64,000 bases of DNA from Escherichia phage vB_EcoM_KAW1E185: sequence record NC_054922.1. One strand, 5' to 3'. Positions 7,750 to 62,955 of this stretch are shown here, piece after piece (positions within the stretch are counted from its first letter, which is position 1; each line of letters opens with the position of its first letter). Made by a program: the position numbers and the translations under genes. The notes below the pieces were generated by a model. It was not told where the DNA came from. It searched no databases and saw only the letters and a program-made list of their open reading frames with translations.

Positions 7750-7754
7750 AACTT

Positions 7755-37871: not shown

Positions 37872-38144
37872 TCAGTTATCTAAGTAAACAGTATGCTTGG
37901 AATACTTTTCCATCATCTTTTTAAATTCATGAATATCTATATAATGACTAGTTAAATCAGCATGATATAAAAAGTCTAAAAACTTTTCATGTGTACTAAC
38001 ATATTCACTTTCATTTAATTCAGAAACATGACTTTCCCAATATCCAACACCAGTTTTATTTGGGAAAAATGAAATTTTCATGTATTGGTCAACATAGAAA
38101 ATGCCATAATTTTCAATAGTAATAGAAATATTAATAAATTTCAT
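37872..38144 (-). CDS. hypothetical protein (90 aa)
   Basis: ORF. Confidence 0.4.
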   Translation of the reverse strand: MKFINISITIENYGIFYVDQYMKISFFPNKTGVGYWESHVSELNESEYVSTHEKFLDFLYHADLTSHYIDIHEFKKMMEKYSKHTVYLDN

Positions 38145-43393: not shown

Positions 43394-43441
43394 AATAAAC
43401 CCTTACCTTAAATAGATAAGGGTATTTATTATTTTCAAGTA

Positions 43442-43888
43442 TTAAAATGCTCGGTCAGAAAAAGAAATTTGAGTTTCAAGCCATTCAATATATTCTGCCG
43501 CAGCTTGCATCAAATTTCCTTCGTAATCATCAATATCTTTTTTCAACGCCGATTTAGCTAATGCGTATGAAATACGTTCACCTTGAAAACCGGCTTTAGG
43601 CTTCTGAACAACTTGATTAGTTCGCTCTACAACTTCTTCAATTTCGCCATTTTCGACTGATTCAGTATTCCACAAACACCAATACGTAATTGGCTTATCG
43701 TAGATGTTAATAATCTTTCCATCAGAAAGTTCAATTTCAATAATTCCAGTATCAGGTTCTATATCATCTTCACATTCTTTTGCAAGTTCACGAACTTTAA
43801 AGACAGTACCTGCACTAAGTTCCGGCCAGTAATTACACAGCCCTGTATCAGCACGATTAATTCTAAACCACTTATCTACTATAATCAT
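43442..43888 (-). CDS. hypothetical protein (about 148 aa), pin region
   Basis: ORF track 43442..43906 starts at TTG; the first in-frame ATG is at 43888. Confidence 0.4.
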   Translation of the reverse strand: MIIVDKWFRINRADTGLCNYWPELSAGTVFKVRELAKECEDDIEPDTGIIEIELSDGKIINIYDKPITYWCLWNTESVENGEIEEVVERTNQVVQKPKAGFQGERISYALAKSALKKDIDDYEGNLMQAAAEYIEWLETQISFSDRAF

Positions 43889-55910: not shown

Positions 55911-55928
55911 AGTCTCCCGAAGGAGACT
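55911..55928 (-). terminator. stem-loop
   Basis: agtctcc cgaa ggagact. Confidence 0.5.
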
Positions 55929-55932
55929 AATG

Positions 55933-56319
55933 TTATTCGAGGGAAAGAAGATACTTACTCTGGTAAAACATTCCAGTAATATCATCTATCGTACTTTGAA
56001 TGGCTGGAGGCATTTCTTTATAAATGCTGTTAGATTGGTCTAGTATGCGATCAATCATTTTAATTGTGTCGGTAGGAAGTTTACTGGCATCTGGAATTGA
56101 AGGTGTGTATTTTCTACCAGAATACCCCAAATATTGCTCACCAAATTTATCAATCAAATCTGGCAACTCGGAAAAAATAAAATCGTATGCTTTGTGTCTA
56201 GCATAACTTTTAGTTTCAAAATGTGCAGAATGAAAATAAGCTTGTGCAGCCATTAATAAACCTAAGTATTCATCTGCCTTTGAAGGTTTTCCACTTTGTG
56301 AAAAGTCGCTGAATTTCAT
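55933..56319 (-). CDS. hypothetical protein (128 aa)
   Basis: ORF coupled to rI. Confidence 0.4.
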
Positions 56320-56611
56320 TCAGTCTCCAATTTAATGTTCATAATTCTAGCGTATGAATGTGCCATCTCCGCGCCTCGTTCTATACATTCAAAATCAGAA
56401 GAGCACGGGTCATTTTTATAGGTCGTTCTCATAAAACTATAGAATTGTTCAGACGATTCTACGCTTTTATTTTCAAAAAGCATATAAACATGTCTAATAC
56501 CAGATTCCATAAATTTATCAAAATGAGGATCGACATTCGCTTCAATCGGTGGAGATAAAGCAAACGCTAATCCTAAGCATGGCAAATAGTGCCGTTGCTT
56601 TTAAGGCCATA
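56316..56611 (-). pseudogene. rI: rI lysis-inhibition regulator with apparent +1 frameshift in the N-terminal signal-anchor region
   Basis: ORF 56316..56585 encodes the RI body (LSPPIEANVDPHFDKFMESG...) from a TTG; the AGGAGG-preceded ATG near 56611 encodes MALKATALFAM then terminates out of frame. Confidence 0.5.
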
Positions 56612-56622
56612 AAGGCCTCCTA

Positions 56623-56835
56623 TCATTTTTGTCCTGTATTTACTTTATGCCGATGCACGGCCTTAACTTTATCAAGGTATTTTTCAAAATTTCGCAATCT
56701 AGTATAGTCTGCCGGAGATTGGTTGAGTGATACTTCTCGACGCAAAGCTGAAATGATATTTCCAACTTCCCTACGAATTTCATCTAATTGAAGAACAGTA
56801 AGATTGCGAAGTTGCTTTTCAGTTAATTGTAGCAT
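56623..56835 (-). CDS. hypothetical protein (70 aa)
   Basis: ORF. Confidence 0.4.
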
Positions 56836-56877
56836 ATATACCCCTTTAGTTAGATAAACCTATTTATAACTTTTGCA

Positions 56878-62895: not shown

Positions 62896-62955
62896 GTGTA
62901 TCCTTTAAATGTAAATATTTTAATTAATAATTTATCTCTTCAAGTAACTGTGAAT

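Follow-up and report, generated by a model that had tools for sequence, protein, structure and literature searches.

A private single-base insertion in the antiholin gene rI of a T4-like phage, probably a recent r-type mutation

In the T4-like phage analysed here, an additional T in codon 12 interrupts the antiholin gene rI. Taken as it stands, the sequence describes a pseudogene or null allele of rI rather than a functional member of the family, and the locus is to be annotated as frameshifted. We consider it likely that the extra base is a genuine, recent r-type mutation in rI. All positions refer to the window, i.e., the whole 64-kb stretch of DNA that was analysed. It is the opening 64 kb of a Tequatrovirus (T4-like) genome, covers the rIIA-to-e segment and is collinear with wV7 and T2. 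The nearest deposited genomes are ~96–97% identical to the phage, and the best relative reaches 97.6% over 24 kb. The rI antiholin gene of the T-even phages and the r mutation as a type of event are known; r mutation in rI has reportedly been textbook material since Hershey (1946). What is new is this null allele, which was previously unrecorded.

The gene neighbourhood tk – rI.1 – rI – rI.-1 is present in the window and matches that of annotated relatives (Table 1). The late-promoter consensus TATAAATA occurs in only four copies within the window, and the other three precede the late genes soc and e. In the annotation of phage Lutter, a "promoter" and a terminator stand at the same places as this copy and the hairpin found here. 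The rI.1 gene, which is an accessory gene for lysis inhibition (PMC2962797), ends with a TGA at 56625-56623 on the minus strand, and the AGGAGG of rI follows it. Translational coupling of rI.-1, which has a GGAG of its own, may be reduced by the rI frameshift.

Table 1. Features of the rI locus in the window and rI-null alleles in other public assemblies
Feature	Position	Strand	Remarks
T4 late-promoter consensus TATAAATA	56861..56868	-	Upstream of rI.1
rI.1, 70 aa, intact	56623..56835	-	Full-length match to wV7 rI.1
rI Shine-Dalgarno sequence AGGAGG	56616..56621	-	Anti-SD duplex -10.2 kcal/mol; 5-nt spacer to ATG
Truncated rI frame from ATG 56610-56608	56542..56610	-	RI residues 1-12 MALKATALFAML followed by RISVCFISTD (10 residues, out of frame) and TGA
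Putative shift heptamer CUU_AGG_A made by the insertion	56571..56577	-	+1 slip would read M-L-G-L as in wild-type RI; function speculative
Lesion, TT for a single T (codon 12 CTA to CTT+A, +1 insertion)	56575..56576	-	From alignments with relatives
rI remainder, codons 13-97 and stop, +1 frame	56316..56573	-	Free of further disruption
rI codon 84, CAT (His) for CAA (Gln) of relatives and T4	56358..56360	-	Private Q84H substitution, in the out-of-frame part
rI.-1, 128 aa, DUF5856, intact	55933..56319	-	ATG overlaps the rI stop (ATGA); own GGAG
Intrinsic terminator, hairpin and T-run	55911..55928	-	Closes the rI.1-rI-rI.-1 unit
Other assemblies: rI 1-bp deletion at codon 41/42, TATATG>TAATG	L013:1376-1668, L015:1376-1668		ENA 166,904-bp scaffold and Logan contig seen in 5 samples
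Other assemblies: rI nonsense mutation TTA>TGA, codon 18	L014:1375-1668		ENA scaffold
Other assemblies: RI(1-33)::RI.-1 fusion	L019:1501-1809		Arose by deletion between direct repeats of 11 bp; an NCBI "Shigella sonnei" record has it too

The sequence-only reading of this locus had described a strong ribosome-binding site followed by an ATG near 56611, a stop in that frame after 22 codons, and the rest of RI in the +1 frame, with a TTG as its start and an in-frame TAA upstream. All of this was seen. AGGAGG occupies 56621-56616, and the ATG lies exactly at 56610-56608, after a spacer of 5 nt. The ORF 56610..56542 (minus strand) encodes the 22-codon product MALKATALFAMLRISVCFISTD and ends with the TGA at 56544-56542. 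The +1-frame ORF 56585..56316 (minus strand), with the TAA at 56603-56601, encodes 89 aa from the TTG, (M)PCLGLAFALSPPIEANVDPHF...KLETE; its translation reads PCLGLAFALSPPIEANVDPHFDKFMESG...NIKLETE. The stretch 56316..56573 on the same strand keeps the remainder of the signal peptide, the cleavage site between IEA and N, all interface-1 residues and C69/C75, out of frame with the authentic start.

It had also been proposed that removal of one T restores a continuous RI ORF. The alignments place a single extra T at 56575/56576, where the window reads ATGCTTAGG and the relatives read ATGCTAGG (ATGC-TAGG), and the product repaired in this way is a full-length PF24205 protein. Written in codons, the relatives have GCC ATG CTA GGA TTA (A-M-L-G-L), and the window has GCC ATG CTT AGG ATT A. 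Two sets of sequences were aligned, the first consisting of vB_Eco_CP, IsaacDaniel, RB27 and Lutter, and the second of 303Ecol101PP and three metagenomic contigs; a single length difference emerged. An alignment with the rI of T4, T2 and T6 had been suggested before, and the extra T is absent from every relative aligned here. The T4 rI primer printed in PMC8385771 likewise reads ...GCC ATG CTA GGA TTG. The description of the site as a homopolymer did not stand: the wild type has a single T in the context C-T-A, and the extra T is a single-base duplication, not a change in the length of a homopolymer run.

The identification of the gene as rI holds. After removal of the T, the 97-aa protein matches the Pfam family PF24205 (Antiholin) over residues 1-96 with E = 4.5e-23 and 81.3 bits against a cut-off of 27, and the +1-frame ORF alone scores 73.8 bits against the same cut-off. 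RI residues 25-97 are identical at 72 of 73 positions to the crystallised periplasmic domain of T4 RI (PDB 6PSK chain R, 6PSH), and the gene order is that of the relatives. It has been shown that RI residues 1-24 are a Sec signal peptide with slow cleavage after A24, and that RI acts through interface 1 on the periplasmic domain of holin T, both as the membrane-tethered precursor and in its mature form (PMC8385771, PMC11413866). The N-terminus of RI, which the sequence-only reading called a signal-anchor, is thus now regarded as a slowly cleaved Sec signal peptide and not as a SAR sequence (PMC8385771, PMC11413866). Interface 1 of RI consists of F30, M34, Y42, S53/E54, F56 and Y57 (PMC11413866). 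Comparing our translation with that work, we found that F30, M34, Y42, S53, E54, F56, Y57 and the C69/C75 pair are all encoded. However, no single ORF joins the start and the signal peptide (1-24) to the periplasmic domain, as the frame breaks after codon 12 and stops at codon 23. The Q84H substitution is probably neutral: it is not part of the T-binding interface 1, and mutation of the neighbouring Y86 was without effect (PMC11413866). The 24-mer carrying Q84H is absent from IMG/VR, where the wild-type string is found in 5 contigs only.

We determined how private the insertion is. The 701-bp rI region matches 501 deposited phage genomes, and the best 60 of the 501 all span 700 bases. A 96-mer across the lesion had zero exact matches among deposited phage records. 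A 41-mer centred on the extra T gave no match in 50,697 phage records using megablast, whose 28-nt exact word cannot seed on this query unless the genome shares the insertion. The mutant string is also absent from IMG/VR, which carries little weight, since even the wild-type rI string occurs in only 5 IMG/VR contigs. Exact look-ups of the 89-aa product and of the altered 90-aa product of 37872-38144 in assembly collections returned no record. A scan of GTDB genomes with an 18-mer was uninformative: it returned 6 matches, in unrelated archaea and bacteria, against ~17 expected by chance (596 Gb, both strands). By these sequence comparisons, the insertion is a difference from ~500 homologous genomes and not a chance pattern.

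A private base can be a mutation or an error. The sequence-only reading had left three possibilities open: a real mutation, a sequencing error and a start of RI downstream of the break. We rank the real mutation as the most likely of the three; the error is less likely, and the downstream start is very unlikely. An audit of the assembly showed that 120 of the 128 annotated wV7 genes have a single full-length tblastn match without stops in the collinear 64 kb. The exceptions besides rI are vs.8, Pin and the absence of denV, which are natural alleles, three small ORFs that are divergent or absent, and a deletion at 37909. Compared with four full-length relatives (wV7, NIC06P2, HP3 and BCH953P4), the window has consistent indels of a length other than a multiple of three only at 7753, 46604, 52332, 37909 and 56575. 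The first three are intergenic or at a gene end, and they are T5>T4, +TT and an extra A in an A-run by a terminator. The coding share of the window is ~91–95%, and under random error the probability that at least three of five indels fall in non-coding DNA is ~1e-3 to 6e-3. Since three of the five lie in the 5–9% of DNA that is non-coding, the indels look filtered by selection and hence real. The assembly error rate within genes looks very low.

Nevertheless, codon 12 may be CTA and rI normal in the phage itself, the extra T being a consensus error of sequencing or assembly. We regard this as unlikely, although several observations agree with it. The insertion consists of one base, a copy of its neighbour, and no other genome has it. 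There is no decay in rI beyond the frameshift, as would be the case for a functional gene, and this fits a recent mutation equally well. With the second private 1-bp indel, at 37909, the assembly has one or more unusual single-base differences besides that in rI. T-even DNA carries heavy modification (glucosyl-hydroxymethylcytosine), which can degrade some basecalling. Against an artefact, the wild-type site is not a homopolymer, and there is no other gene-breaking indel in the ~58 kb of coding sequence of the window. The chance that an error lands in the 294-bp rI is ~0.5% per error. Moreover, real null mutations are expected in rI more than in any other gene, and public assemblies contain no fewer than three further null alleles of independent origin.

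These alleles come from public assemblies of T4-like phages, and with that of the window there are at least four (Table 1). The 11-bp repeat TTGATAAATTT behind the rI::rI.-1 fusion is present in the window as well, at 56521-56511 and 56153-56143. Two RI N-terminal fragments with foreign tails (P0007 and P0008) were not counted as rI alleles, since their tails match nothing T4-like; they are probably chimeric short metagenome contigs. The recurrence of rI-null alleles fits laboratory or bottleneck selection for r plaques. According to the statement of Hershey as cited in PMC6832632, r mutants appear with a frequency of 1e-3 to 1e-4, and they stand out by eye. They are also expected to lose to the wild type in broth competition (PMC6832632), and therefore their fixation needs a bottleneck such as plaque picking. 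Because the rest of rI is undamaged, the mutation appears to be recent. A reading of the site as a contingency locus was rejected, as the lesion site is no homopolymer tract; in a preprint (10.1101/2025.10.21.683753), the phage contingency loci are homopolymers of at least 6 nt in rIIA and other genes.

The comparison with relatives also revealed other differences in the window. In the minus-strand ORF at 37872-38144, the private 1-bp deletion at ~37909 gives ACTTTTCCATC in place of the ACTTTCTCCATC of 449 relatives (best matches 122 bases, query 121). The affected ORF, hypothetical and 90 aa long, lies between gene 55 and 55.1, and its last 9 residues alone are altered, from ...MMEKVFQAYCLLR to ...MMEKYSKHTVYLDN. 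The denV gene (endonuclease V) is absent at 62922-62930, where the window has 9 bases and wV7, NIC06P2 and BCH953P4 have ~400. The denV-less junction is 100% identical in 303Ecol101PP, SHBML-50-1, ESh17 and KMB22, so the absence of denV is natural variation shared with other phages rather than a deletion private to the window. At 43400-43450 (minus strand), between pin and gene 49, Pin ends in ...ISFSDRAF and a stop, as in the EcNP1-type natural allele. A 169-bp stretch, which codes for a 58-aa ORF in EcNP1, is missing from the window, and TTTTA(C)AAT is common to both endpoints of the deletion; phages of the wV7 type have the tail of this small ORF fused to Pin. The junction of the window may be private, the best database matches all being two-piece. 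At the N-terminus of vs.8 (62281), the window has AAA and wV7 has AAAA, and the first 16 Vs.8 codons of wV7 are out of frame. Many phages (JK38, PE37, Sf25 and others) match the version of the window at 100% identity, so that the exception is wV7, and the start of Vs.8 is probably the downstream Met (MRTFLTGPY...). In nrdC.11, a compensated +1/-1 pair of indels 7 nt apart (52447 and 52454) distinguishes the window from all four full-length relatives; ~2 residues are altered, and the frame is kept.

If the insertion in rI is real, as we think likely, the allele should be null for lysis inhibition (LIN), because the break lies inside the Sec signal peptide and the downstream starts are without a ribosome-binding site. 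The antiholin RI binds the periplasmic domain of holin T and delays lysis upon superinfection. The frameshift from the +1 T insertion in codon 12 falls after L12, in the hydrophobic core of the signal peptide. Ribosomes starting from the authentic ribosome-binding site and ATG would make the 22-residue peptide and then terminate, and the periplasmic T-binding domain would stay untranslated in frame. Rare internal initiation would give a cytoplasmic fragment unable to reach holin T. The phage is therefore predicted to be LIN-defective, with the classical r (rapid lysis) phenotype and large sharp-edged plaques. Most plausibly, the mutation would have arisen and been picked up in plaque purification or propagation.

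It is also conceivable that the mutation is real but leaky. In this case, the ribosome would slip by +1 from CUU to UUA at a slow AGG codon and then read GGA, some wild-type RI would be made, and LIN would be partly kept. We give this little chance. At the sequence level, a slippery P-site codon, a slow A-site codon and a functional +1 product are all found at CUU_AGG_A, and the shifted reading (...A-M-L-G-L-A...) restores wild-type RI without a substitution. AGG is among the rarest E. coli codons, and in the phage of the window it is also rare, at 1.84 per 1000 codons. The heptamer agrees at 6 of 7 positions with the Ty1/ABP140 site CUU_AGG_C, which alone gives ~40% +1 frameshifting in yeast (PMC5009743), and in E. 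coli a slow codon in the A site favours +1 shifting (PMC2790909, PMC5009743). However, the efficiency in yeast needs a special tRNA-Leu(UAG) with an unmodified U34 (PMC5009743), and the main CUU decoder of E. coli, tRNA-Leu(GAG), would be expected to mispair at the third position of UUA. No SD-like motif is present in GCACUAUUUGCCAUG, upstream of the heptamer, whereas prfB has such a stimulator ~3 nt upstream. In-frame CTT-AGG was observed once in the phage genes against 0.78 expected among 19,561 codons, a sample too small to judge by. The arrangement is present in none of the ~500 relatives, hence it is no conserved programmed feature. If an unstable antiholin were made at a yield of only a few percent, LIN would probably not be maintained. 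A literature search for tests of CUU_AGG in E. coli found nothing usable. If slippage does occur, the phage would be a leaky r mutant whose residual LIN would depend on the supply of tRNA-Arg(CCU), and the site would be a natural bacterial case of a Ty1-type shift site rescuing an indel. Rescue by transcriptional slippage was rejected, as the lesion site has no homopolymer.

That a functional RI with a shortened N-terminus is initiated at the TTG (56585) downstream or at one of the internal ATGs is so improbable as to be almost negligible: the 89-codon TTG ORF does hold the whole periplasmic domain and its cleavage site, but the TTG sits within an actively translated ORF and has no ribosome-binding site, the anti-SD duplex energy being -1.7 kcal/mol at the TTG and +0.6 to -2.8 kcal/mol at the in-frame ATGs M34, M43 and M60, against -10.2 kcal/mol at the authentic ATG. 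In the TTG product MPCLGLAFALSPPIEA, a positively charged n-region is lacking, the hydrophobic residues number only ~8 and half of the export-signal core is missing, and the products of the internal ATGs (64, 55 and 38 aa) are without any export signal. The long in-frame form with a strong ribosome-binding site is kept in ~500 relatives, as seen in the best 60 of 501 listed.

A genuine null mutation in rI thus remains the reading that we prefer. Its value lies in annotation, where the gene becomes a frameshifted rI pseudogene, and in strain characterisation; the understanding of the RI/T system is unchanged. The stock is expected to behave as r-type, with rapid lysis, larger and clearer plaques, no LIN and smaller bursts at high cell density. 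Such behaviour would be relevant to phage therapy, biocontrol and experiments on lysis timing.

Among known systems, the Ty1/ABP140 site CUU_AGG_C and the prfB site CUU_UGA_C share with the window a P-site CUU, a slow A-site codon and a +1 slip that leads to a productive frame (PMC5009743). The motif of the window differs from them in that it comes from a private mutation, is not conserved and lacks an SD-like stimulator, and the tRNAs of the host are unlike those of yeast. The null alleles in public assemblies resemble that of the window in that rI was disrupted independently in T4-like phages. They differ in position and type of mutation, and the +1 insertion at codon 12 was found in the window alone. 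A literature search for the molecular lesion of T4 r48 found nothing usable. As in the classical rI r mutants such as T4 r48, the gene appears inactivated, and the predicted phenotype is the same, i.e., loss of LIN and large sharp plaques (PMC6832632). In contrast to them, the phage of the window is another Tequatrovirus, ~96–97% identical to the nearest deposited genomes, and its phenotype is a prediction. The closest counterpart is T4 rI itself (PF24205; PDB 6PSH, 6PSK, 6PX4, 6PXE). The two genes share their genomic position from the late promoter to the terminator, the ribosome-binding site, the first 12 codons, the 72/73 identity over residues 25-97, and all interface-1 residues together with both cysteines. 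The window differs from T4 in the private Q84H, outside the holin-binding interface, and in the extra T in codon 12, which leaves the start codon and the initial half of the signal peptide in a different frame from the remainder of the protein.
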